From Candidatus Saccharimonadota bacterium (GTDB lineage: Bacteria > Patescibacteriota > Gracilibacteria > BD1-5 > UBA6164): a stretch of 32,000 nt of DNA. Under the pieces are notes generated by a model. That model did not search any database and was not told the origin of the DNA. It saw nothing but the letters and a program-made list of their open reading frames with translations. The DNA lies in the NCBI GenBank assembly GCA_963677765.1, contig OY782392.1, positions 180,001-212,000 on the forward strand. Direction: 5' to 3'. The position numbers and the translations under genes were made by a program. Shown piece by piece: positions 1 to 30,194 of the stretch (the stretch's first letter is position 1; every line of letters begins with the position of its first letter).

Positions 1-2688
1 AATGCTGATTTATCAACATGAGAAAAAATAAATACAGAAGTAGTTGAATGAATAATTCAAGAAGATATATTTAATAACTTCATAAAAAAAAGTGTAAGTG
101 TTTTTTTGTACTATAAAAAATGAGAAGAAGAAAAGCTTTTTAAGAGGGTTTTTGATGAAAACACTTCATGAGTAGTAACTATTAATGCTGTTATAAATGA
201 AACAAAAACTATAACAAAACAAATAAAAGTTATTAGAATAAACAAACAAGCTCCTACTTGAGTATTAAAATATTCTCCTTCAAACAATACTTGGGTTAAT
301 TCTTCAAAAACTGTAACTCTAGAATGAGCTGCTGCATGAGAAGACTGGTTAGTATGAAACTCTAAACCAAGTTATAAGTGTGAAGAACAAGGTTGATGTA
401 TATGAACTTTGAGCATTCAAGACTCAGCTGGTAATGTTTTAGAGCTAGAATATAATATACAAAAAATAGATAAAATAAATCCTACTATACATGTAACTGC
501 ATATCCTGAAATAGCTTCATGAAAACAAAAAATATGATATAGATGTGAAGATAATGGATGAAGTTGATGTAAAAATTGAACTGATGAAAAAATAGATTAT
601 TTACCAACAGGTAGTTCAAAAATTTATTGTATAGAAGATAATGCTTGAAATTCTTCATGTCAAAAAGTAACAGCTGCAAATTCAGATAGAGATTATTCAG
701 ATGATCATCTAGCTCATACAAATGATAAAAGAAAACTATTTTTAAAATGTATAGATAACTTTAGTTGATGTACTAGTCCTGATGTTATAGAATACAAATA
801 CAAAAATATAGCTAGTACAAACCTAACTATAAAAGATAATGCTTGAAATTCATATACAAAAGTTTTTCAAATATCAAAAATAGATAAAGTAGATCCAACT
901 GTAACAATAACTTCTCCAAATAGTTTTAAAGCTACTGATGATTCTAGAATAAATGTTAGTTTCAATGATAATGTTCCAGCAAGCCAAATAAATGATTATT
1001 CTGAAAGTTGAATAAAAGAAGCAAAATACAAATGGAATTCTAGTTGTAAATCATGAACCAATATAACTTGAACAAGTGTTATAAACTGAGAAAATATAAA
1101 CCATACAGTAGCATGAAATCATAAACTATATCTTTGTGCTATAGATAATGCTGGTAATATATGAGAAACTTCAAAAGATATAATTATATACCCTTGAGAC
1201 CTTGATTTATCTCAATCATCTGTATATGCTGATACTACAAATAATAAGTATGCAAATTTTAAAGATTATTACTTATATAATTTACAATTAAAAGACAAAT
1301 ATTGAAACCCAATATTTAACAAAGAAGCAACTGAAGTAAAACAAAAATGTGATGATTCTTCTTGTAAAACATTATTCTTGGATATGGTAGATACAACTCT
1401 AAAAGATGATGCATTAATAGAATATGATTTTGCAAACAAAACAAATACAAGTTGAATTCTAAATTTCAAAATTAAATCCTATACTCCATGAGTTTTCTCT
1501 GATAATTTTTATTTCAAACTAAGAGATTGGAATGATAGTTATGGTGATGTATGATTTCCAAAAGAATACTATTTAGAATCAAATGAAAATAGTTTTCTAA
1601 AACCTATTGAATGAAAAATAGAAATTTTAGAATGATGAAATATCCCAGAAATTTGAAAAGAACAAAAATATAAAATAAATTTAATAAATACTTGAAGTCT
1701 TACTAATTATAACTCTTGAGATTTAAAAGTAGAAAAAGATTCTATAATAAATCAAGTAGAATGACATTTCTGGAATGAGTTTAAGGAAGAAAAATGATAT
1801 TTTTGAAATGATTTATCTACAGATAATATTTGATTTGTATGAAAAATTGATGCAAATAAAAACATATTAAAATGACCTCAAATAAAAGCATATAATTTAG
1901 AAATAAAATATAATCTTTTTGGTCAAAATGTAAGATATTTATTAGATAATTTAGATTCTGGACAAAGCTGTGATTTAGAAACTCTTTGAGCAAAAATATT
2001 TGGACAATTACAATGAGATGGTAAATGAGATATGACATGACAAGAAGAAAATTTTTCTGATTTATCTATATGAGAAACAAGAGCTCAAATAAGAAAAAAT
2101 GCCTATAGTCAAATATCTTCAATGAGACCAAATACTACAGTTAATTGAATAAAATATGTAGAAAACCAAAACTATGTAGTTGAAGAAAATCCTAGCTATG
2201 AAACTTTGGTTGTAAAAAATTGAAATGTTATATTAAACAAAAATAATATAAATTCTGATAATTCTAAATTATGAATAATTGTATTAAAAGACAATTATAA
2301 TGCAAAAAGAGATTTTGATAATACATGAAATGTTTATATAGCAAATAATGTGGAATACATTTGAGCATCTATATATGCAGATGGTACTCTGAGAAGTGCT
2401 AAATCAAATTGAGATAAATATGAAGATTTAGAATTAAATAAAAAATTAGAATTATTTGGTAATTTATTTACAAGAAATACTATTTGAGGTGCAGTACTTG
2501 GTTGAACTGAGTATACTATACCTTGATGACAAATTACTAGTGATTTTGAATTAGCAGAAGTTTATGACTTAAACTATGTAAGAAAAATAGACAAAGTTTG
2601 TAGTGCTAATCCAGAAGATAATTATTCTTTTGTAATTAGATACAATCCATCTATACAAACAAATCCTCCAAAATTATTTAGTAATTAA
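1..2688 (+). CDS. Large secreted/surface repeat protein, C-terminal 895 codons (start lies upstream of window)
   Basis: Frame 1 has no TAA/TAG from nt 1 to TAA at 2686-2688 when TGA is sense (dozens of in-frame TGA). Recurring Ig-like-repeat style signatures SIQDSAGNV / IEDNAGNS / IKDNAGNS / AIDNAGNI, several followed by KIDKxxPT linkers. Paired Cys. C-terminal module ...IYADGTLRS...LFGNLFTRNTIGGAVLGG.... Function inferred only from motif style. Confidence 0.8.
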
Positions 2689-19085: not shown

Positions 19086-21596
19086 ATGAATAAAAAAGCT
19101 TTTTCTTTTGTAGAAATAATTATAAGTATTTCTATACTTGTTGTTCTAGCTATAGTAGCTACTACAGCAACAAGCAATATAAAAAATAACTCTAATAATT
19201 CTAGAGTTATAGCTGACTTGGCTACTATTAAAAATGGTTTCATTTCATATAGTAATGAAGGAGCTACTCTTGCTGATCCACAAGGTAATAAAAACTTCTA
19301 TACTCAAGATTGAAGTTATGCTCATGATAGATCTGAAGCTTTTTGAGTTTACTGAAAAGTAACTGAAAATACTATAGAAAATAGATATTTAAATATTGTT
19401 CCTTTAGATCCAAGAACTAACCAATATTATAGTTATTGAGTTGCTATTGATTCTAATCAATTTGAAGTTGCTTGAGTTCTTTTTAACGAAGAATGACATA
19501 GAGCAAAAGTTGAAGGTAACTATTCTGCTGAAAACTGAATCTACAATCTTATAAGAGAACATAATTGAAATAACTTTGTTATTGATAAATGACCTTATCT
19601 TCCTTATAACCCAGAAGAAAGAATTCTTACTGCTAGAGACTGAGATTGAAATGTTTATTATGTTTGAGATGAAATAGTAAATAATAGTTCATATAATATG
19701 GAAATTTACTTTTCTGATTGATCTACATCTGTTATCACTCCAAGTACTAGTATAGTTCTTGCTGAAATGGACTTCCCTAAAGATAACAATCTAGTTTCTA
19801 AGGTAAAAATATTTTTAGAAGCTGGTAGTATATGGACTCAAGCTACTTCTCTTGATAATGAATCTAGTTTTGATATATTTACTAGTGATACTACAGCATC
19901 TGTTAGATGAACTATTTTTGCAGTTAATACTGATGGTACAAATACAGAAGTATTAGTTGAAAAATGAGAAGTTGAAGTTAAGAAAAATCCTATACTTTTT
20001 ATAAAAGAAGATATATTAGTTAAACCTTCTATAATATCTAATCAAGTAGAATCTATTAAAACTGATATATCTATAGATCCATTTCAAATTATAAAAGATG
20101 ATACTGATTTCACAAAGGTTAAAAAAATCAATATGACTAATCCTAATTCTATTATAGAATCAGAAATAGAAGAAGTAAAAAATGTATACTTCTCAAATTG
20201 ATCATTTAATACAAATATATTAGATAATAACTTAATAAGCAATATTGATAATAGCTTTATTGCTGAAAATAATATAAATAATATATGAAAAAGTTGTTAT
20301 TTAGAATGAGTAAAAATAGAAGATTGAGAAACATGAACTGGATTCTTATATAAAGAAGATGATACTTGTACAGATTATATTACTAGAACATGTAATAACT
20401 GAATTCTTGAATGAGATAGTAACTATAAATTTTTCTGATGTAAAAAACCTGAAAAATGTAGCACATCTTATACTAATTCTTTGAATATATGATTAGAAAC
20501 TTATAATTTTAATTTATGATTTTGAGAATTAAATACAAATAAATGAGACTTAACATCATGAGTATTATCAGAACCTAAATTCAATATATCAAATTGACAT
20601 AAAAGATTACAAATGGATTTAGAATGTGCTAATGATTTAACTTATACTCCAATATGAGCTCCTACTGAAATAATTTATTGTGATACTTGATATGAAGAAG
20701 ATGATTGAGCATGTGTTTCTGTTTGTAATTGATTACAATTATGATTATGAGCTTTATGATCTGTATGTATACAACCAATACAATTATTTCATGATAATTG
20801 ATATGATTTAGTTAGTTATATCTGATATGACAATTTCAATGAAAATACAGCAAATAATAATGATTGATTTAATTCATCTTTTAATATAATTTGAGATTGA
20901 AGTTTATATAACTGAACTCAAGTTATGTATTGATCAAATAGATGGATTCCAGAATATACTTGAATATTTAATACACCTAACTGATGATGTTCACATCATT
21001 GTTGAATATGAATAAAACCTAGTTCAATAAACTGACTTTCATTTAATAATAAAAATCATATTATAAAAGATACTAATCCTTCAAATTGACCAGTATATTG
21101 AGTATATTTAGATAGGGCTGGTAATGATAGTTATCTTAAATATGAATGATTAAATTTATGAAATACAGATGTAGATGATTTTAAAATTGAGATATCTACT
21201 AGATGAAGATCTTTAAAAAGTAATAATGCTAATAAATATTATTTATTTTCAAATGATAGTTGAAATGTAAATCTATTCTTAAAAGATTGAAGACTATATT
21301 ACTATGATGGAATATCACATAATATGATAACTAATAGCTTATCTATTGATAATCATGAATATTACAAAGTTGTATTTGAAAGATATTATAACCAACAGGC
21401 TCATAATAATAGCCATTATACAAAATTAAGTATTTTAGATAAAGATAATAATGTAATTGCTAGTCAAAACAACTCATGAGTTAACAGTTGAACAAATAGA
21501 TTTTGAAGTAAAATATATATAGCTAGTGATAAAAATAAATCTAATCAATGGGAAGATATTATTGATTATGTAAAAATATATAAAAAAGATATGTAA
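19086..21596 (+). CDS. Type IV pilin/pseudopilin-headed giant protein with Cys-rich middle and LamG/ConA-like C-terminal region
   Basis: 836 aa. N-term MNKKAFSFVEIIISISILVVLAIVATTA is a class III (prepilin) signal: short basic leader, cleavage before F, Glu at +5, hydrophobic helix. Middle region has many Cys. C-term ...KYYLFSNDSGNVNLFLKDGRLYYYDGISHNMITNSLSIDNHEYYKVVFER...IYIASD... resembles a LamG-type beta-sandwich (tentative). Checked codon by codon: no in-frame TAA/TAG. Stop TAA 21594-21596. Confidence 0.85.
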
Positions 21597-21626
21597 AAAT
21601 ATATACAAAATAATTTTGTTTTTTAT

Positions 21627-21666
21627 AAAAAAGATAGTAAAGTAATAAAAACTTACTATCTTTTTA
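21627..21666 (+). terminator. Intrinsic terminator after the pilin-like gene
   Basis: AAGATAGTAA (21631-21640) / TTACTATCTT (21653-21662) 10-bp stem followed by TTTATTTATT. Confidence 0.6.
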
Positions 21667-21678
21667 TTTATTAGAATA

Positions 21679-22296
21679 ATGGAAAACAAACAAATCTTTG
21701 ATATAATAGTAAAATCAAATATTGTAAACTTAGAAAAAGTACTAAAAAATATAAAAAATGATAAACAAAAAGAACAAATAAAAAATATGTTTGAGAAGCA
21801 TATGCAAGAAATAGCAAAATATTGTATAGAAAACTTTTATAACAAAGACTTATTAGATGAAAAATTTATAAAATGACTACACTTAATTCATTATCCAAAA
21901 TGATATATAGAAAAACAAAAAACTATATCTTGAGATGCAGAAATAGTTACAATGATACCATGAAATTATAAAACATTAAAAAATTTTGACTGGGTATTAG
22001 TAAAAGATGTAAAAGAAGAAATGAATAAATTAATAAATAATTATAATTTATCGGATAAAAAAGAAGATGATATTTATGATTTTTTATTAAACTTTTTAAG
22101 AATACATCCTTTTTGAAACTGAAATGCAAGAGTATTATCTATAATAGTAGATTTGATGCTTATTAAAAATAATTATCCTGAGTTAAACTTTAATTTAAAA
22201 CAATACAAAGATAAGGAAAATATAAAAAATTTGATTGTAGAATGAATTAAAGAAAGAAATCATAAAGAAATAATAAAAAAAATAAAAGAGCTTTAA
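21679..22296 (+). CDS. Fic/DOC family protein with degenerate active-site motif
   Basis: 205 aa. Motif IHPFGNGNARVLS at 22105-22131 (canonical HxFx[D/E]GNGRxxR); both Gly flanking the first Asn are TGA codons. Stop TAA 22294-22296. Confidence 0.78.
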
Positions 22297-22310
22297 GCTC
22301 TTTTATTTTT
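22282..22310. terminator. Bidirectional terminator between Fic gene and convergent adhesin gene
   Basis: AAAAGAGC-tttaa-GCTCTTTT hairpin (22284-22304) overlapping the Fic stop. T-run on plus, A-run on minus. Confidence 0.65.
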
Positions 22311-24689
22311 TTAGAAGAAATCTTTAATAGTAACATTAAAGTTATTTGATAAAACGACATTATTATTTGGTTCTGTAAGTCTTAATCTATATGTATATGT
22401 AACATCAACATCATATTCTGGTCAACTTCAACTTATATGAACTAATCTATTTCAATCAAGTTGAACTTCTCAAGAAATAGGACCTCAACTAACTGTTTCT
22501 AAAACTATTGTAGAACCTACTTTATAATTACTTATAAGAGTAGTAACATCAGCTATTAATTCTGTTTGAGTTCATGATCATTCATTAGTTTCAAAATTTC
22601 AAATAGCCATCCAACTAGCAGCAACTGCTTCTACTTCATAGTTAACTGTAATTGCAGTACTATCTAAATTACCATCATTTGCAACAACTTGAAAACTACC
22701 ACTTTGTATAGTATTTGTAGTTCATGATAATGTACCATTTGAGTTAAATGTTGTTCATGCTGGTATAGTTCATGATACAACTCTATATGTTAAACTGTTT
22801 CATTCTGCATCTGTTGATGAAAATGTTAGGCTCATTGCATCTCATACAGTAACTGTTGAATCTCCACTAACATTTGGTTGAGTTGGTGCTGTATTAACAA
22901 CAGGAGCTGCTTCTACTTCATAGTTAACTGTAATTGCAGTACTATCTAAATTACCATCATTTGCAACAACTTGAAAACTACCACTTTGTACAGTATTTGT
23001 AGTTCATGATAATGTACCATTTGAGTTAAATGTTGTTCATGCTGGTATAGTTCATGATACAACTCTATATGTTAAACTGTTTCATTCTGCATCTGTTGAT
23101 GAAAATGTTAGGTTCATTGCATCTCATACAGTAACTGTTGAATCCCCACTAACATTTGGTTGAGTTGGTGCTGTATTAGCTCATTCTAATCATGAAATAG
23201 CTGATTGTAAGTTTGTATTAGCTTGATCAACTTGAGCTTGACTAGAATTAGAGTCATCTCTAATTTGTATAGCATTAGTTAAAGCTGTTTGAAGATTAGA
23301 CCAACTAGAAGTAGTATAATCTGATTGATTTAATCATTGAGCTGTTGTTATAGTAGAATTCAAAGTTGAAAAATCAGCAACTTCTGATAATTGGTCTATA
23401 GCAGAATTTAAGTTATTAAAAGCTGTTTTAACTTGCTCCAAAGTTGAATTATCATCATTATTAACAATTATAGCAGCAGCTAATGCTGAAGATAAAGCTG
23501 CCCAACTACTAGAAGTATAATCATTACTATCTAAAGATCATACTTCATTTATTTTTGAGTTAAGTGCTGATTTATCCAAGATAAATTCAGTTGTTACTTT
23601 TGTTTCTTTTTGTCAGTATAAAGTAGACATAGCTTCTCTTGCTCAAGTAGTATGAGTAAGATTTAGATGATTATATTTTCTAGAATTAGTATATGATTTT
23701 AATCCTGGAGTATAAGTAAATGTAAGCATAAATCTATTATCATCCATAGAGCTAGAGTTTACTCTTTCATAAGCTGCTCAAACAGATAATCAATCACTAA
23801 TAATATAATCTACTTTTCATCTATATATTTCTGAATCAAATGAATCACCATCTAATCTAGAATATTCTATACTAGGTCTAATTTTTCATCAATTATAAGT
23901 ATATCAAAATCAATAATTATTAGCTCAATTTCAAATATTAGTATGTCAAAAATTAGCATCAAAACTACTATTTCAATAATCATATTCAAAAGTAAATCAT
24001 GCAGATCTAGTATCTTCTCATTCAAAACTAGTAGTAGTTGTAGTTATTTCTTTTCCCCATTCAACATCTCTTGAAACTTGAGTAACTGATAAAGTTTTAG
24101 AGTCAGTAAAAGTTGCATTAGCATATACTCAAGCTCTAAAATTTTCTACTATATTTGAAAAATCTTTTAAAAATTCAGCTCAAACATATTTTTGACCAAT
24201 ATCTACTCATTCAAAATCTTGTTTTAAGTATCATGCAGTAGCTTTTGCTGAAAAATCAACTCATTTATATAATCAAGTAACTAAATATGATTGTCTTTCA
24301 TCTCAAAAATTAGTTGTGATTAATGTTCCCCATTTTTCTCATACATTTGCATATTCTATAGATGTAACTAATCACATTGATTCTGAATCTTGTAATCAAA
24401 TTTCTAATCTAGAGTTTTGATTAGAAATTTGTAAATTTCAGCTTTGAGTATCAGGATTTCAATTTAATACAATATTTGCTTTATTTGTATCAGTATATGA
24501 TGGAGAGCCTAAATCTGGTAAATTTTTAGTTGAAACTCTAGGAGGAGTTAAATCGTCATGGTTAACAGACATTACATCATTAACTCTATTACTTGTAGAA
24601 GCACATCATTGCATTAATGCTCATGCTACAAATAATGCAGTTCAATTTTTATAAATTTTTGAAGCTAAAGAATTAGACGAATTTTTCAT
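22311..24689 (-). CDS. Surface lipoprotein-like adhesin: N-terminal beta-rich domain, 2 FIVAR-like repeats, 2 Ig-like (He_PIG/cadherin-like) repeats, C-terminal domain
   Basis: 792 aa. N-term MKNSSNSLASKIYKNGTALFVAGALMQGCASTS (signal peptide with a lipobox-like LMQG-C). Two repeats of the type DYTSSSWAALSSALAAA...LEQVKTAFNNLNSAIDQL (FIVAR-like). Two 94-aa repeats ...LTYRVVSGTIPAGTTFNSNGTLSGTTNTIQSGSFQVVANDGNLDSTAITVNYEV.... Length is an exact multiple of 3. Stop TAA (plus tta 22311-22313). Confidence 0.85.
22625..23178. repeat. Near-identical 282-bp tandem duplication inside the adhesin gene
   Basis: 22625-22896 and 22907-23178 are identical except for 3 transitions, by direct visual alignment of the printed lines. 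The period of 282 bp (94 codons) keeps the reading frame. Confidence 0.95.
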
Positions 24690-24767
24690 ATTTTTTTATT
24701 AATTAATATCTAAAACAGGTTAAAATATAGTATAAAAAAATAAATTGTCAATATTATTTTAAAAATA

Positions 24768-24806
24768 AAATAAAAACCAGACATTTTTAGACTGGTTTTT
24801 ATTTTA
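24768..24806 (-). terminator. Intrinsic terminator of the muralytic-protein gene
   Basis: AAAAACCAG (24772-24780) / CTGGTTTTT (24792-24800) stem with an 11-nt loop, just downstream (minus sense) of the stop at 24808-24810. Confidence 0.55.
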
Positions 24807-24807
24807 T

Positions 24808-26457
24808 TTAAGCATTTAATCAAGACTCTCTCATATTTGATAAATATCATCTTAATTGAGCACTTCATAAATGTGCTTTATTTAATCAATCTCAAGCATA
24901 ATAACTTCTACCTGACATATCTTTTGGTAAAGAAGCCCATTCTTTTGATAAGTTTAACTGAAATTGTTCAATACTCATTGAACCATTCATAAATGAATCC
25001 AATCATCTTATTTTCAAAAGATAAAGTCCCATCTTATCTTGATTTTCAGGAGAAAATTTTGCATTCATTCATAATCAAGTAGCTTCTGCTGCAGCTCTAA
25101 GTGTTCATTGTATAAATTGATATTTACCTATAGCTGAAGAAGGTTGTCATGAATTAACAAATTGTCTTTGATATTGTTGTACTTCTCAAATAGTCATACT
25201 TGTAAAATCAATTCTAGATTGATCAGAGTTTCAATATATAGAATTATAATTTCATCATGATTCAAAAATAGATATCAAATCTAAAAGTCATTTTTCTCAT
25301 TCTCTAAGTTCAATATTAGAAAAATCAATTTTATTATTAAATCTTGAATAAGCATCTATTTGTCAATCTCAATCAGTATCAGCAATAGCATCTTTTAATA
25401 ATTCACTATTATTATCTAATCAATAATCTCATCTAATTCTTTCAACTTGAGTAAATAATTCTTCAAGACTTAATTCATATTTATCTTCAGGAGTATCAGA
25501 TAATATAGATTCAAAAGTCTCCATTACTAAATCTGGTTCTATTCATCTACTAAGAGCTTCTTTAGCAATCATAATTTGTAATTTTCATTCGTATCATTCA
25601 AGTAATTGTTCATTTCTATTTGAGATTTTTGTTAATTCCTCAGGAGTTCTTAATTTAGATATATCAACACTTGTAGATTCATGAATAGTAAGCCTCTTAT
25701 TTCAATTAAAAAATTCTCATTTTAGATTACTTCTAGTATATTCAACTCATCCGGAAGTAACTGTTCATACTTCTTCTGGAAGAACTTGTCATGCTGTAGT
25801 TTCTAAATATAATTCTCTATTATATTCTCATTCAAAAGTAAAAGAAAATTCCAATGAATCTATATTTCAGTTAGCTACATCACTAGAATCAATATTATTT
25901 TTAGTTATATACTGTAATCTTGCTTCAGGAGATAAAGCTAAAAACTCTTTATTATTTAATGTTTTTAGTTCTTCATTATTTATATCTAGTTCTTTTATTT
26001 CTCAAGTTTCTTCATTATAATCAACTCATGCTTCATGCTCTAATGTATTAGAAGCTTGTGTTAATCTATTTTTTAATTCATTAATTGTAGTTGATAAATC
26101 ATTTGATTGTTTTGTTGCTTCAAGATACTGATTTCTATAATGATTAAACATTTCGATTGTTGGTCTTGCTTCAGGATCATTTCTAATTTCAGGATCACTA
26201 GTAAGACCTTGTCTTAATCTTTCTGATATTTGACTTGTTATTTTTCAAGTATTTTGTAATGAATCATATTTTTGTTCCAAAGCATCAATTTGTTCCATAA
26301 GCTCTTGTTGTTCTGGAGTCAAATTTTGCCTTTCTAATCTTTCATTTGGAGCTTGTGTTTCATTATTATTTTCAGGAGTTCAAATAGGTCAAGATTCTTG
26401 AAAAGAAGAATACAATAAACTAGAAAAACTTTGTTTAAGATTTTTTATAAATAACAT
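24808..26457 (-). CDS. Coiled-coil protein with C-terminal lambda-lysozyme-like (GH104-type) lytic transglycosylase domain
   Basis: 549 aa. C-term ...LISIFESGGNYNSIYGNSDQ...SSAIGKYQFIQGTLRAAAEATGLGMNAKFSPENQDKMGLYLLKIRGLDSFMNGSMSIEQFQLNLSKEWASLPKDMSGRSYYAGDG.... From memory this parallels phage lambda R: SEGT...GAGRYQLL...FSPKSQDAVALQQIKERGAL...IWASLPGAGYGQ. The N-terminal ~380 aa is E/Q/L-rich and probably coiled coil. No obvious Sec signal peptide. Confidence 0.78.
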
Positions 26458-26512
26458 ATATAAATAATTAAGTTATATTTATATATATATTATCATATAG
26501 GTTTGAAATAAA

Positions 26513-26543
26513 CAAAAAAACACCAATATTGGTGTTTTTTTTT
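26513..26543. terminator. Bidirectional terminator (downstream of rnr)
   Basis: AAAAAAACACCAAT/ATTGGTGTTTTTTT perfect palindrome, 4 nt from the rnr stop. Confidence 0.7.
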
Positions 26544-26546
26544 ATT

Positions 26547-28709
26547 TTATGAATGTACAACTTCAAAGTTTAATCTTAATAAAACTTCATCAGCTTCAAT
26601 TAATTTAACTCTAATATTATCTCAAAGAGTATATTTATTACCTAATTTATCTCTATGAGTTTGCATTTTTTCATCAAAATTTGAAGATTCAACTTCAACA
26701 AAACCTTCTGCAGTATCAGGTAAAGCAACAAAGAATCATTTTGAAATTACTCATGTAATTACTCAGTCAAATTCTTCACCTACTTTATTTTTATAATATT
26801 TAACCAAGAAGTAATCTCTAACTTTGTATTCAAGTTTTTCACTCATTCTTTCTCTTTCACTACATTGTTTAGAAACTTTTGATAATATAGAACCATAATG
26901 ATTTTGTCTTTTTGCATCAAGTTTTTGATTTAGATATTCTTTTATAATTCTATGTATTTGTAAATCAGGATATCTTCTAATTGGAGAAGTAAAATGACTA
27001 TAAAATTGTAAACCTAATCAAAAATGACCAAAATTTATATGAGAGTAACTAGCTTGAGTCAAAGTTCTCAGAGTCATTCTTTCTAAAAATCTTCTTTTAG
27101 CATCATCTAAATCTTTGTATTTATCTAATAATTGACCGAATTCAACAGTATTAGCCTCATCAAATCTAAATTTTATACCAAATAATTGTAATTTATCTTG
27201 TAAATCTAAAATATCATTTTCTTTTGGTTTTTCATGTATTCTATAAACAAATGGGAATTGAGACATCTCTTTGGCAACAGCTTCATTTGCTGATACCATA
27301 AATACTTCAATTAATTTATTTGAGTTATATTTTGGATATTCTTTTACTCAGATTGGATCACCATTTTCATCAAATTCAACAACAGTTTCTGGGAAATCAA
27401 AATCAAGAGTACCAGTTTTTTCTCTATGCTTCATGATTAATTCTTTTAAATCATTAGCATCTTTAATTGTATCTAATAATTGTTTAGTAGCTTCTCATCT
27501 AAACATTAATTCATCTCAAACATTTACATGTCTTTTTTCAATTTCATCTACATCTTTATAAGTTAATCTAAAATCACTTTTAATAACAGATTCATATAGT
27601 TTTGATTTTATTAAATGACCAGTTTTACCTCAAATAGTCATTTCACAAGTCATTGTTAATTTGTCTGTATAAGGATTTAGACTACAAAGATTATTAGATA
27701 ATTTTTCTGGTAACATAGGTATAACTCTATCAGCCAAATAGATAGAAGTACCTCTTTCTAATGCCTCTTTATCTAAAGCAGATCTTTCAGTTACATAATT
27801 AGTAACATCAGCTATATGAACATAAAGTTTATAATCTCAGTTATCCATTTTTTCTAAAGAGATTGCATCATCTAAGTCCTTTGCATCAGCACCATCAATA
27901 GTAAATGTAAATAAATCTCTAAAATCTTTTCTTCTAGATATTTCATTTTTATCTACATTTTCTGAAATTCAAGATAATTGTTCTTGAACATCGTCTCAAA
28001 AAGTAATTCTAGCACCTCATTCAACAGCCAAAGTTAAGATTTCTTCTTCTCTTTTATCTAAACTACCTTTGCTAGAAATAATTTCTTTAATAACTCATTC
28101 TGGATTTTTCTTAGACCACTTCGTAATTTCTACTCAAACTATATCTCAAGAATGAGCTCACATTGCATTAGTACTAGCAACAAATATATCATTTTTGAGA
28201 TTTTTATCTTTTGGAATAACAAATCAAAAATTATTTTTACCAGTTTTATATGTTCAAACAACCAATCATTTTTTTCTTTCAATTACTCTAACTATTTCTG
28301 CTTCTTCTTTTCATTTAAAAACTTTTACACTAGCTTCAACTAAATCTCAGTCCATAGCTGTTTGTTTGTTTCTAGAAAAAACAAAATATCATTTTTTTTC
28401 TTTTCATTCAGGAGTTTCGATTATAGTATCAACAAAACCAAAATCTCAATTTCCTTGAGAGTAAGTTCATACTATATTTGTTTCATTTAATTTATGTTCA
28501 CTTGATTCTTTTAATACACTAATAATTTTAGCTTCTTTACTTTTTCATCATTTTTTATCTAAAACTTCAACTTCAACTAAGTCTCAGTTTGAAGCTCAAT
28601 TAATATTTGGTCCAGCTATGAAGAAATCACTGCTATGAAGCGATTTATCTGTAGGAACAACAAAACCATAACCGTCTTGTTCTTGAAAAACTCATACTGC
28701 TTTTTCCAT
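26547..28709 (-). CDS. rnr: Ribonuclease R with three N-terminal OB/cold-shock-like modules
   Basis: 720 aa. RNB core ...[21 protein letters not shown]...[11 protein letters not shown]...[24 protein letters not shown]...[28 protein letters not shown].... C-terminal S1-like [28 protein letters not shown]. The N-terminus carries three G-x-F/Y...GFGFV...GDLVE modules. Confidence 0.93.
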
Positions 28710-28777
28710 TTGTTTTTGTTTAAAAAATATATTTATAATAATTGTAACATATAAAACAAAAAAATAAAAACAAAAGT

Positions 28778-28805
28778 TTGCAAAAAGATTGACTTTTTAT
28801 ATAAT
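28778..28805 (+). promoter_or_regulatory. Candidate promoter of the microhelix/tRNA-Leu transcript
   Basis: TTGCAA (28778-28783), 16 nt, TATAAT (28800-28805). Lies 15 nt upstream of the GGGGCCG hairpin and 49 nt upstream of tRNA-Leu. Confidence 0.4.
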
Positions 28806-28820
28806 AGCATCACTCTTTAT

Positions 28821-28848
28821 GGGGCCGTGTTAATTTGCGGCTCCACCA
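28821..28848 (+). ncRNA. tRNA-Ala/tmRNA-like acceptor microhelix ending in ACCA (function unknown)
   Basis: GGGGCCG-tgttaatttg-CGGCTCC-ACCA. The 7-bp stem has a G.U pair at the third position (as G3:U70), then single-stranded A + CCA. It is a GC-rich island in an AT-rich spacer, 6 nt upstream of tRNA-Leu. No D, anticodon or T arms. Confidence 0.35.
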
Positions 28849-28854
28849 TATTAA

Positions 28855-28939
28855 GCCCAGATGATGGAATTGGTAGACATGGGGGACTCAAAATCCCCTG
28901 CTTTCGAGCGTAAGGGTTCAAGTCCCTTTCTGGGTACCA
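28855..28939 (+). tRNA. tRNA-Leu (anticodon CAA), class II, CCA encoded
   Basis: Acceptor GCCCAGA/TCTGGGT (G1.U72). Anticodon stem GGGGA/TCCCC with loop CTCAAAA (CAA at 28889-28891). Long variable arm GCT-ttcg-AGC. T arm AAGGG-TTCAAGT-CCCTT. Discriminator A, then CCA. Confidence 0.92.
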
Positions 28940-29579: not shown

Positions 29580-30194
29580 TTAATCTAAGATTTTTACTAC
29601 AAAACCTTCTGGATTTTTTCATCATTTTTTTATAATTTTTGCTTCAACTATATCTCAATCTCTAGCTCAATTTTTTCTTGGACCTGGAATAAAAACATCA
29701 TTATTAGTTCATTCATCTGGTATAACAAAACCAAATCTATCACTATCTTTGAATCTACCTACTACTGTTTCAAATTCGTCTTGAAATATTTTAACAACAA
29801 CAGCTTCTTTTTTTCATTTGAATTCTACTATTTGAGCTTTTACTTTATCTCAATCTTTTGCTCAATTTTTTTTGTTTCAATATACAAAATAACCTTTTTC
29901 TAATCATTCTACATCAATAAATCAAAAATTACCATCTCAAGAACTATATATTCATTCTACAAATTCTTGCTTTATGGGTGCTTCTTTTCAAAAAACTCTA
30001 ACAATTTTTACTTCAGGTTTTTTTCATTTTGTTTTAATTTCTACTCACTCTACCCTATCTCAATCTTCTGCTAATCAAAAATTATTTTTGTTTACATAAA
30101 AATCTCATCAATAGTATTCTCTATCTTCTGGAATTAAAAAACCAAAATTAGATCATCCTTGAAATTTTCAAACTATTTTATCATTATTTTTCAT
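29580..30194 (-). CDS. Stand-alone triple OB-fold (RNase R N-terminal cold-shock-like) repeat protein
   Basis: 204 aa. Three modules: IVGKFQGGSNFGFLIPED...FGLAEDGDRVEGVEI...; VEGIYSSGDGNFGFIDVEG...NGAKDGDKVKAQIVEF...; VVGRFKDSDRFGFVIPDEG...NGARDGDIVEAKIIKK.... No nuclease domain. Frame checked triplet by triplet. Confidence 0.8.

Follow-up and report, generated by a model that had tools for sequence, protein, structure and literature searches.

A candidate recombination-prone cell-surface locus encoding a modular type IV pilin, a stalked surface protein and a predicted lytic transglycosylase in a recoded Gracilibacteria genome

The window analyzed here is a 32,000-nucleotide stretch of DNA from Candidatus Saccharimonadota bacterium (GTDB lineage Bacteria; Patescibacteriota; Gracilibacteria; BD1-5; UBA6164; assembly GCA_963677765.1, contig OY782392.1, positions 180,001 to 212,000). 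Between the genes for threonyl-tRNA synthetase (ThrRS, thrS) and RNase R (rnr), it holds three genes, P1, P3 and P4, which encode a modular type IV pilin, an exported anchor-stalk-tip protein and, judging from its sequence, a lambda-type lytic transglycosylase. We favor, at about an even chance of being right, the reading that this gap is a conserved, recombination-prone cell-surface locus whose three independently transcribed genes serve attachment to another cell by the mechanism proposed below. A sequence-only reading of the same DNA had proposed a contact-dependent attack module of four genes in 19086-26457. Code-25 open reading frames (ORFs) and domain searches bear out all four genes and their described domains. 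The linkage of P1, P3 and P4 and the hypervariable tips also stand, whereas the fourth gene, encoding a Fic protein (P2), drops out of the module. The four genes are the following.

19086..21596, + strand: P1, 836 residues; class III signal MNKKA/FSFVE, modular type IV pilin.
21679..22296, + strand: P2 (Fic), 205 residues; degenerate motif HPFGNGNARVLS at residues 143-154; no signal peptide.
22311..24689, - strand: P3, 792 residues; signal with lipobox-like LMQGC at residues 1-29, then a linker.
24808..26457, - strand: P4, 549 residues; no signal peptide.

Genetic code 25, in which TGA encodes glycine, is in use throughout the window. ORF calling with table 11, the standard bacterial code, gave short fragments over the region, and the proteins were re-derived with code 25. 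The gene calls are valid under this code only, because TGA occupies the invariant glycines of Walker A (RecG, RadA), of the flavin adenine dinucleotide GxGxxG motif, of the S-adenosylmethionine-binding motif and of the thiamine pyrophosphate GDGG motif, and because long-ORF coverage rises from 7.7 kb to 44.9 kb once TGA is read as a sense codon. TGA is the main glycine codon of the whole window (513 of 707 glycine codons), the GC content is ~25%, and database homologues are labelled Candidatus Gracilibacteria or Altimarinota. Public protein collections translate the TGA codons of these genes as tryptophan, and word-based homology searches were visibly weakened. The window's own P1 is present in a public collection in this Trp-for-Gly form (P0056, from a 1,048,296-bp contig).

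The distal parts of P1 and P3 are replaced between genomes whose housekeeping proteins are ~98% identical, which is typical of receptor-binding tips. Two overlapping features describe this replacement.

19986..21596, + strand: hypervariable distal P1 (residues 301-836), 18-49% identical among close relatives; nonsynonymous divergence (dN) = 0.68.
20051..22619, unstranded: replaced cassette located where the 3' ends converge, delimited with blastn; it takes in distal P1, Fic and the P3 C-terminal tail.

Compared with related locus L007, whose flanks are about 80% identical in DNA, similarity by blastn falls to zero over 20051-22619. Compared with L021, whose ThrRS and RNase R are 98.7% and 97.5% identical in amino-acid sequence, the blastn gap is 20450-22619. 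Residues 1-300 of P1 retain 72-97% identity among relatives, against 18-49% for residues 301-836, and the break is sharp, at residues ~300-455. Despite this low identity, distal P1 keeps its architecture and a terminal IDYV.IY.K motif. The ratio of nonsynonymous to synonymous divergence (dN/dS) is about 0.11 in proximal P1 versus about 0.75 in distal P1; flanking genes lie at 0.07-0.36. The divergence pattern in distal P1 and P3 is that expected of surface receptor-binding (host-recognition) determinants.

Synonymous divergence (dS) from L007 is 0.21-0.25 for P3 and P4 and 0.21-0.48 over the whole tract comprising P3, P4 and part of RNase R (22619-28877), against a background of 0.7-1.1 for all other shared genes. 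This low-dS tract suggests recent recombination between the window lineage and L007. A search for transposon-like terminal repeats around Fic found none. The sole feature is a 23-bp tandem duplication across the P1 stop codon (21567-21610, TATGTAAAAATATATAAAAAAGA twice), which may be a recombination scar at the cassette edge.

Conservation of the gene neighborhood was examined in 25 related loci, scored with code-25 ORFs and hidden Markov models; a pattern scan of genome contigs gave only 11 loci, because its patterns contained glycines, which are TGA-encoded here. The order ThrRS, P1, P3, P4, RNase R, plain or expanded, was found in the window and in L007, L021, L002, L008 and L022-L024. Thus the synteny check suggested by the sequence-only reading came out in favor of P1-P3-P4, which lie between ThrRS and RNase R in most relatives examined, but not of Fic, which was found in none. 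The arrangements were as follows.

L021, L007 and L002 (where the contig allows): ThrRS, P1, P3, P4, RNase R.
HOT-871-like lineage (L008, L022-L024): ThrRS, P1, P3, P3, P4, P4, RNase R.
At least 8 genomes: P4 adjoining RNase R, in some of them without P1 or P3.
GN02-872 (L015): two P4 genes; P1 and P3 absent.
L003/L013: P4 homologue directly 3' of a PilT-type ATPase.

The N-terminal modules of P3 and P4 (P3-N and P4-N) co-occur and co-duplicate, as in the arrays of two P3 and two P4 genes of the HOT-871-like lineage. Beside the P1 homologue of L009 (12255-17924), P3 and P4 are replaced by a 975-residue FIVAR protein with a different, ~690-residue beta-rich N-domain and by a 905-residue protein; the P3/P4 slot seems to accept alternative surface proteins. 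Between P4 and P3, L007 (14726-15079) and L002 (3631-3984) carry a 117-residue gene that gave no Pfam or PHROG match. The window has instead 118 bp at this place (24690-24807), containing a terminator and a promoter.

As a modular type IV pilin, P1 consists of a conserved carrier, made of a pilin module and a FecR domain, and of a hypervariable distal part that is Cys-rich and LamG-lectin-like.

P1 modules: pilin, residues 1-145; FecR-like, residues ~183-300; Cys-rich beta, residues ~400-640; LamG/ConA-like beta-sandwich, residues ~670-836.

The prepilin signal, MNKKA/FSFVEIIISISILVVLAIVATTA, shows the Ala-1/Phe+1/Glu+5 pattern, and F6 and E10 (+1 and +5 of the processed pilin) are invariant across 44 members of the P1 family. 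Pfam N_methyl (PF07963) scored 16.3 bits on the window P1, below the cut-off of 21.2; several family members carry this domain, and their sources name them PulG or prepilin-type. The FecR domain scored 45.7 bits in Pfam (its InterPro entry is, we assume, IPR006860), and 12 cysteines lie within residues 404-639. An AlphaFold2 model was computed from P0056, the Trp-for-Gly version of the protein, which lowered its quality (mean predicted local distance difference test, pLDDT, 69.9). It shows a 50-residue alpha1 helix (residues 8-57) followed by the pilin beta-sheet, with pLDDT values of 80-93 in the FecR domain and 75-89 in the C-terminal sandwich. Foldseek matched the FecR-type part to PupR and BDI_1681, which are FecR-type anti-sigma domains, and the C-terminus to perlecan LG3, agrin, neurexin, PTX3, BoNT Hc, CBM40 and PHA-L (E 3e-4 to 3e-3, TMt 0.38-0.50). 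Pfam gave no LamG/PF13385 match in residues 620-836 at E<=10, and PF13385 was present in one family member (P0106). The LamG/ConA-like C-terminal fold is thus a prediction from structure comparison alone. Together with the invariant F6 and E10 and the 12 cysteines, it upholds the earlier description of a type IV pilin signal on a Cys-rich, LamG-like body of about 800 residues. Within the family, residues 1-300 are kept and the remainder varies; the window P1 is a singleton in clustering at 90% identity.

Pilins onto which lectin or FecR-type modules are built form a recognized class of modular, tip-located adhesins, and a survey of their grafted modules lists PF13385, PF05345 and IPR006860 and includes examples from the Candidate Phyla Radiation (CPR) (PMC8179133, PMC9934059). 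Like PilB and PilC of Streptococcus sanguinis (PMC8179133, PMC9934059), P1 has a class III signal with Glu5 and a small pilin module to which further modules are grafted. The C-terminus of PilC consists of an Ig-like plus ConA-like lectin module, predicted to lie at the tip, and the end of P1 is likewise predicted to be lectin-like. Unlike PilB and PilC, P1 joins a FecR domain, a Cys-rich region and a LamG-like domain in one 836-residue pilin, its distal half is hypervariable between near-identical genomes, its gene adjoins thrS, away from any pil operon, and it is known from sequence only. P1 is a new modular pilin, with hypervariation at the level of strains and three cargo modules in an unusual combination. 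Large pseudopilins are numerous in Gracilibacteria, which also encode PilB/C/D/T (PMC6851277), and P1 is credible as a pilus-presented adhesin. A reading of P1 as a polymorphic toxin, or as similar to contact-dependent inhibition (CDI) systems, with a variable C-terminus and a small immunity gene downstream, was rejected: the variable part is lectin-like, and relatives lack a downstream gene.

P3 is an exported anchor-stalk-tip protein: its N-domain is an orphan, its FIVAR/Ig stalk varies in length, and its tail can be swapped.

P3 modules: orphan N-domain; two FIVAR, residues ~368-501; two He_PIG Ig repeats, residues ~505-695; variable tail, residues ~696-792.
22625..23178, - strand: tandem duplication of a 282-bp unit, a 94-residue He_PIG Ig-like repeat; 2.0 copies, 98% identity.
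23712..24479, - strand: P3 N-domain (P3-N), residues ~71-326; predicted 18-strand antiparallel beta-meander of outer-membrane-barrel type; orphan.

Pfam found two FIVAR, two He_PIG and a Big_9 domain in P3, in agreement with the FIVAR and Ig-like repeats of the protein described previously, which was called lipobox-bearing. Set against the lipobox [LVI][ASTVI][GAS]C, the sequence ALFVAGALMQG/C agrees at -1 (Gly) and departs at -2 (Gln) and -3 (Met). Close relatives keep the lipobox-like LMQGC, distant paralogues carry non-lipoprotein signals, and a signal or lipobox was present in all family members. The stalk modules differ from member to member (none, FIVAR, He_PIG, G5 or Ig-like), and the tails are of at least three unrelated types. 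The repeats had been described as under active expansion. The duplication itself is confirmed, with one copy of the 282-bp unit in L007 and two in L021; since L021 shares it, expansion is not necessarily ongoing.

P3-N has 15 representatives at E<=1e-3 among 1.84 billion clusters; it has no relatives in Pfam, and its profile gave no meaningful PDB sequence match. A word-indexed search returned 2 proteins only, a low yield that is probably due to the Trp/Gly mistranslation in the database. The domain was modelled on the homologue P0128 (65% identical, Trp for Gly) with a 12-sequence alignment, and the model contains 18 antiparallel strands with pLDDT values of 80-93. All top Foldseek matches among PDB and viral structures were outer-membrane barrels (TamA, FimD/PapC, Tom40, LptD, Occ and OmpT porins), with TM-scores of only 0.2-0.4. 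The predicted strands are amphipathic, and their amphipathicity and composition resemble those of outer-membrane proteins. Inverse autotransporters such as intimin and invasin consist of a signal, an N-terminal beta-barrel, a stalk of Ig-like repeats and, distally, a variable binding domain. P3 follows this layout, its barrel being a prediction; it differs in having ~18 predicted strands instead of 12 and no LysM, and in belonging to a lineage thought to lack an outer membrane. No inverse-autotransporter barrel was matched in P3 by Pfam or NCBIfam, nor did the profile match a PDB sequence. Relatives of the lineage show a single membrane by transmission electron microscopy (PMC8080830), and Patescibacteria are regarded as being without an outer membrane (PMC12102498, PMC6851277). 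The predicted P3-N barrel is therefore left without an obvious home membrane.

On sequence evidence, P4 is a real peptidoglycan glycan-strand-cleaving enzyme, a lambda-type lytic transglycosylase carried on an orphan N-terminal module.

P4 modules: amphipathic N-terminus, residues 1-20 (conserved); coiled coil, residues ~40-170; orphan core, residues ~164-262; DxDxDG loop, residues 360-368; GH104-like domain.
24811..25305, - strand: P4 catalytic domain, residues 385-549; lambda-R/GH104-like; Glu399 codon at 25261-25263.

The C-terminus matched the phrog_90 endolysin (E=7e-25), and the family profile matched lambda lysozyme 1am7 (E=1.2e-8, lambda residues 6-134). Aligned with lambda R in hhalign (96.4% probability; the lambda sequence used agrees with the part available for comparison), Glu399 falls on the catalytic Glu19. 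These matches substantiate the earlier description of a 549-residue coiled-coil protein ending in a GH104-like peptidoglycan-cleaving domain. Glu399 is invariant in 18 family members, and the motifs GxYQ, FSPxxQD and WASLP are present in the catalytic domain. The best match of this domain among solved structures is PDB 11mn_A ('66 kDa protein', E=8.5e-9), slightly ahead of lambda lysozyme.

The N-module comprises the conserved amphipathic head, the coiled coil and a core with RLQYITKN...LYLETTAGQVLPKEVG...GEFF...RLTIHE. Its profile gave no meaningful PDB sequence match. A phage origin of this module was considered and rejected, as it had no PHROG match. Neither P4 nor any of its orthologues has a signal peptide or transmembrane segment. 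Members of the family have exchanged one catalytic domain for another, the types being PF11860 muramidase, PF01464 (SLT), PF18896 and lambda/GH104-like. Since the swapped domains all cut the same glycan bond, the activity required of the family appears to be glycan-strand cleavage. Purifying selection acts on P4 (dN/dS 0.16), which is 93% identical to its counterpart in L007. In L003/L013 (8940-11542), from a Gracilibacteria lineage farther removed, a 347-residue T2SSE/PilT-type ATPase is encoded 18 bp upstream of the P4 homologue, which has a PF11860 muramidase domain; this arrangement hints at a tie between the P4 family and pilus dynamics.

Unlike lambda R (GH104; PDB 1am7, 3d3d), P4 has about 385 additional N-terminal residues, made up of the amphipathic head, the coiled coil, the orphan core and the DxDxDG loop, which is Ca-loop-like. 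Moreover, it belongs to the chromosome of a cellular lineage, in which it is conserved, and its orthologues exchange the catalytic domain for PF11860 or SLT. The FtsEX-controlled hydrolases PcsB, CwlO, EnvC and RipC carry signal peptides and CHAP, NlpC/P60 or LytM domains. P4 resembles them in having an N-terminal coiled coil followed by a wall-cleaving C-terminus, but it has no signal peptide and no CHAP, NlpC/P60 or LytM domain, and no sequence relation to them was detectable. P4 is thus a new architecture around a known catalytic fold.

Terminator-like hairpins were found in every gap between neighboring genes, confirming the earlier statement that the genes lie on both strands with terminators between them and do not form one operon.

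21628..21665, + strand: AT-rich terminator-like hairpin and U-run in the P1/Fic gap (z = -3.2).
22276..22312, unstranded: perfect 18-bp palindrome, a bidirectional terminator common to Fic and P3 (z -4.9 and -4.7).
24765-24807, - strand: terminator-like hairpin 3' of the P4 stop codon, in the P4/P3 intergenic region (24724..24807).
24751-24724, - strand: near-consensus promoter-like site for P3, TTGACA-16-TATATT, in the same intergenic region.
26514..26541, unstranded: bidirectional terminator-like hairpin between RNase R and P4.

Fic was called a Fic-family enzyme and a possible host-modifying member of the module by the sequence-only reading. Its domain is real: PF02661 scored 29 bits in Pfam, against a cut-off of 24, and Fic proteins of the PDB were also matched. 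It departs from the canonical AMPylator motif HxFx(D/E)GNGRxxR, as HPFGNGNARVLS has N for D/E, A for the second G and S for the last R. A regular-expression search found no inhibitory helix motif (S/T)xxxE(G/N). No signal peptide was detected. The best family match was PDC-S04 (E=2.7e-12), a candidate phage-defence Fic family of PADLOC; the match to SoFic was weak. Fic is a singleton cluster at 90% identity among about 15 billion proteins and is absent from every related locus, including one whose flanking proteins are 98% identical. All 7 of its glycine codons are TGA, its GC content is 18.8%, and terminators lie on both sides. Like PDC-S04/SoFic of PADLOC and the Doc-type Fic toxins, it is a small, stand-alone fold, and its motif, HxFx(D/N)(A/G)N.R, is nearer to the Doc pattern than to that of AMPylators. 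Unlike in Doc, the Lys of Doc is Ala here, no antitoxin or partner gene is adjacent, and the protein is known from its gene alone. Because it is absent in relatives, a singleton, without export signal, non-canonical in its motif and matched to PDC-S04, we exclude Fic from the module. It is most simply explained as a recent, strain-specific insertion in the recombination-prone cassette, outside the surface system; its most likely role is that of an intracellular enzyme of the defence or toxin type.

Housekeeping genes flank the locus, those for RecG, RsmG, TrpRS, a DapD-like protein, an aldehyde dehydrogenase, an ALS-like protein, PPK2 and ThrRS on one side and those for RNase R, an OB-fold paralogue and RadA on the other. 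The gap between the RNase R and OB-fold genes holds a tRNA-Leu(CAA) gene (28855-28939, + strand). The OB-fold gene (29580-30194, - strand) encodes a stand-alone 204-residue protein with three OB_RNB/CSD2 repeats, which is ~40% identical to the N-terminus of RNase R and is kept beside rnr in relatives. At the edge of the window (1-2688, + strand), the C-terminal 895 residues of a larger protein that runs off the window contain repeated Cys-containing Ig-like segments. This partial protein had no Pfam match and is probably another large surface protein.

In the attachment mechanism that we propose, prepilin peptidase would process P1, and a type IV pilus would then carry it at its tip or close to it, as the analogy with PilB and PilC of S. 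sanguinis suggests (PMC8179133, PMC9934059). The lectin-like end of P1 would bind a strain-specific surface glycan or protein on another cell, and pilus retraction would draw the two cells together. P3 would act as a second, short-range adhesin, and P4, acting together with P3 at the envelope, would cleave glycan strands locally, either in the wall of the partner or in the cell's own wall to let surface machinery through. Several observations weigh against this mechanism. No pilus assembly genes, pilD, pilB and pilC included, were found within the window, and P1 could equally be attributed to a competence or twitching pilus or to a pseudopilus like that of type II secretion systems. P4 has no recognizable export signal, so that its extramembrane location is assumed from its substrate. 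It is also the most widely conserved member of the locus, purifying-selected, set in a housekeeping context and found without P1 or P3 in L015 and L003, all of which fits a housekeeping autolysin. Since the genes are separate transcription units, co-regulation of P1, P3 and P4 is unproven. The structures were predicted from mistranslated database sequences, that of P3-N moreover from a homologue and a shallow alignment. Finally, most of what is documented on epibiosis and predation comes from the sister class (PMC8080830).

Some of these observations lead to a different explanation, which we regard as possible though clearly less probable than the attachment mechanism: a housekeeping envelope locus without any host attack. 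P4 would then be the cell's own autolysin, a coiled-coil plus hydrolase protein like PcsB, CwlO or EnvC, or a lytic transglycosylase associated with a pilus or secretion system and opening the cell's own wall; P1 would be a minor pilin for DNA uptake or motility, and P3 a surface-layer protein. The position of P4 beside RNase R in at least 8 genomes, P1 and P3 being missing from some of them, is consistent with this, as are its low dN/dS and its high identity to L007, the PilT-type ATPase immediately upstream of its homologue in L003/L013, and the single glycan bond cut by all the alternative catalytic domains. In addition, CPR type IV pili have been assigned to DNA uptake as well as to adhesion (PMC11452946, PMC8080830). 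However, FtsEX-type hydrolases carry signal peptides and P4 has none, P3-N and P4-N are confined to the lineage, unlike core division proteins, and purely internal functions would hardly account for a P1 tip that is lectin-like and hypervariable or for P3 tails that are swapped. For P4 taken by itself, we give a self-directed role (pilus passage, cell separation) about the same probability as an attack on the wall of a host.

It is unlikely, in our opinion, that P3 and P4 form a dedicated export or penetration pair, in which the P3 barrel would be a conduit or anchor allowing the signal-less P4 to reach peptidoglycan, P1 being independent. The adjacency and co-duplication of P3-N and P4-N, the barrel prediction, the conserved amphipathic N-terminus of P4 and its lack of a Sec signal would all fit such a pair. 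However, an outer membrane is not known in the lineage (PMC8080830, PMC12102498), TM-scores to real barrels reach only 0.2-0.4, and P4 occurs without P3 in some genomes. Slightly less likely still is that P3-N is a true porin-like barrel which, after P1 has pulled the cells together, would insert into a Gram-negative host's outer membrane and serve there as anchor or pore, its producer having no outer membrane; its co-evolving, signal-less partner P4 would then reach and cut the peptidoglycan of the host. If true, a host-inserted P3-N barrel together with P4 would be a new kind of epibiont-to-host penetration device. The full four-gene model, with Fic as a delivered host-modifying enzyme in one contact-dependent attack module, is very improbable and largely refuted by synteny: although Fic is physically adjacent, has a real Fic domain and, with TGA at all 7 glycine codons, is native to the code-25 background, it is a singleton without export signal, absent from all relatives, non-canonical in its motif, closest to a candidate phage-defence family and flanked by terminators.

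The literature searched on Gracilibacteria treats pili and large pseudopilins in general terms only, and the present locus is undescribed there. Little is known of how CPR/Patescibacteria recognize their hosts and break into them, and for Gracilibacteria there are hardly any candidates open to experiment; specific ones come from this locus. Attack models for it should drop Fic. As leads, we value most the hypervariable P1 tip and the P3-N/P4-N pair, the predicted barrel being the one truly odd element. The lectin-like tip of P1, which differs between near-identical strains, is a candidate host-range determinant, and P3-N and P4-N are a lineage-restricted orphan pair linked to a wall-cleaving enzyme. 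If the P3-N barrel is real, its presence in a lineage believed to be monoderm would call into question the envelope model or else the notion that barrels of this type function solely in the membrane of their producer.

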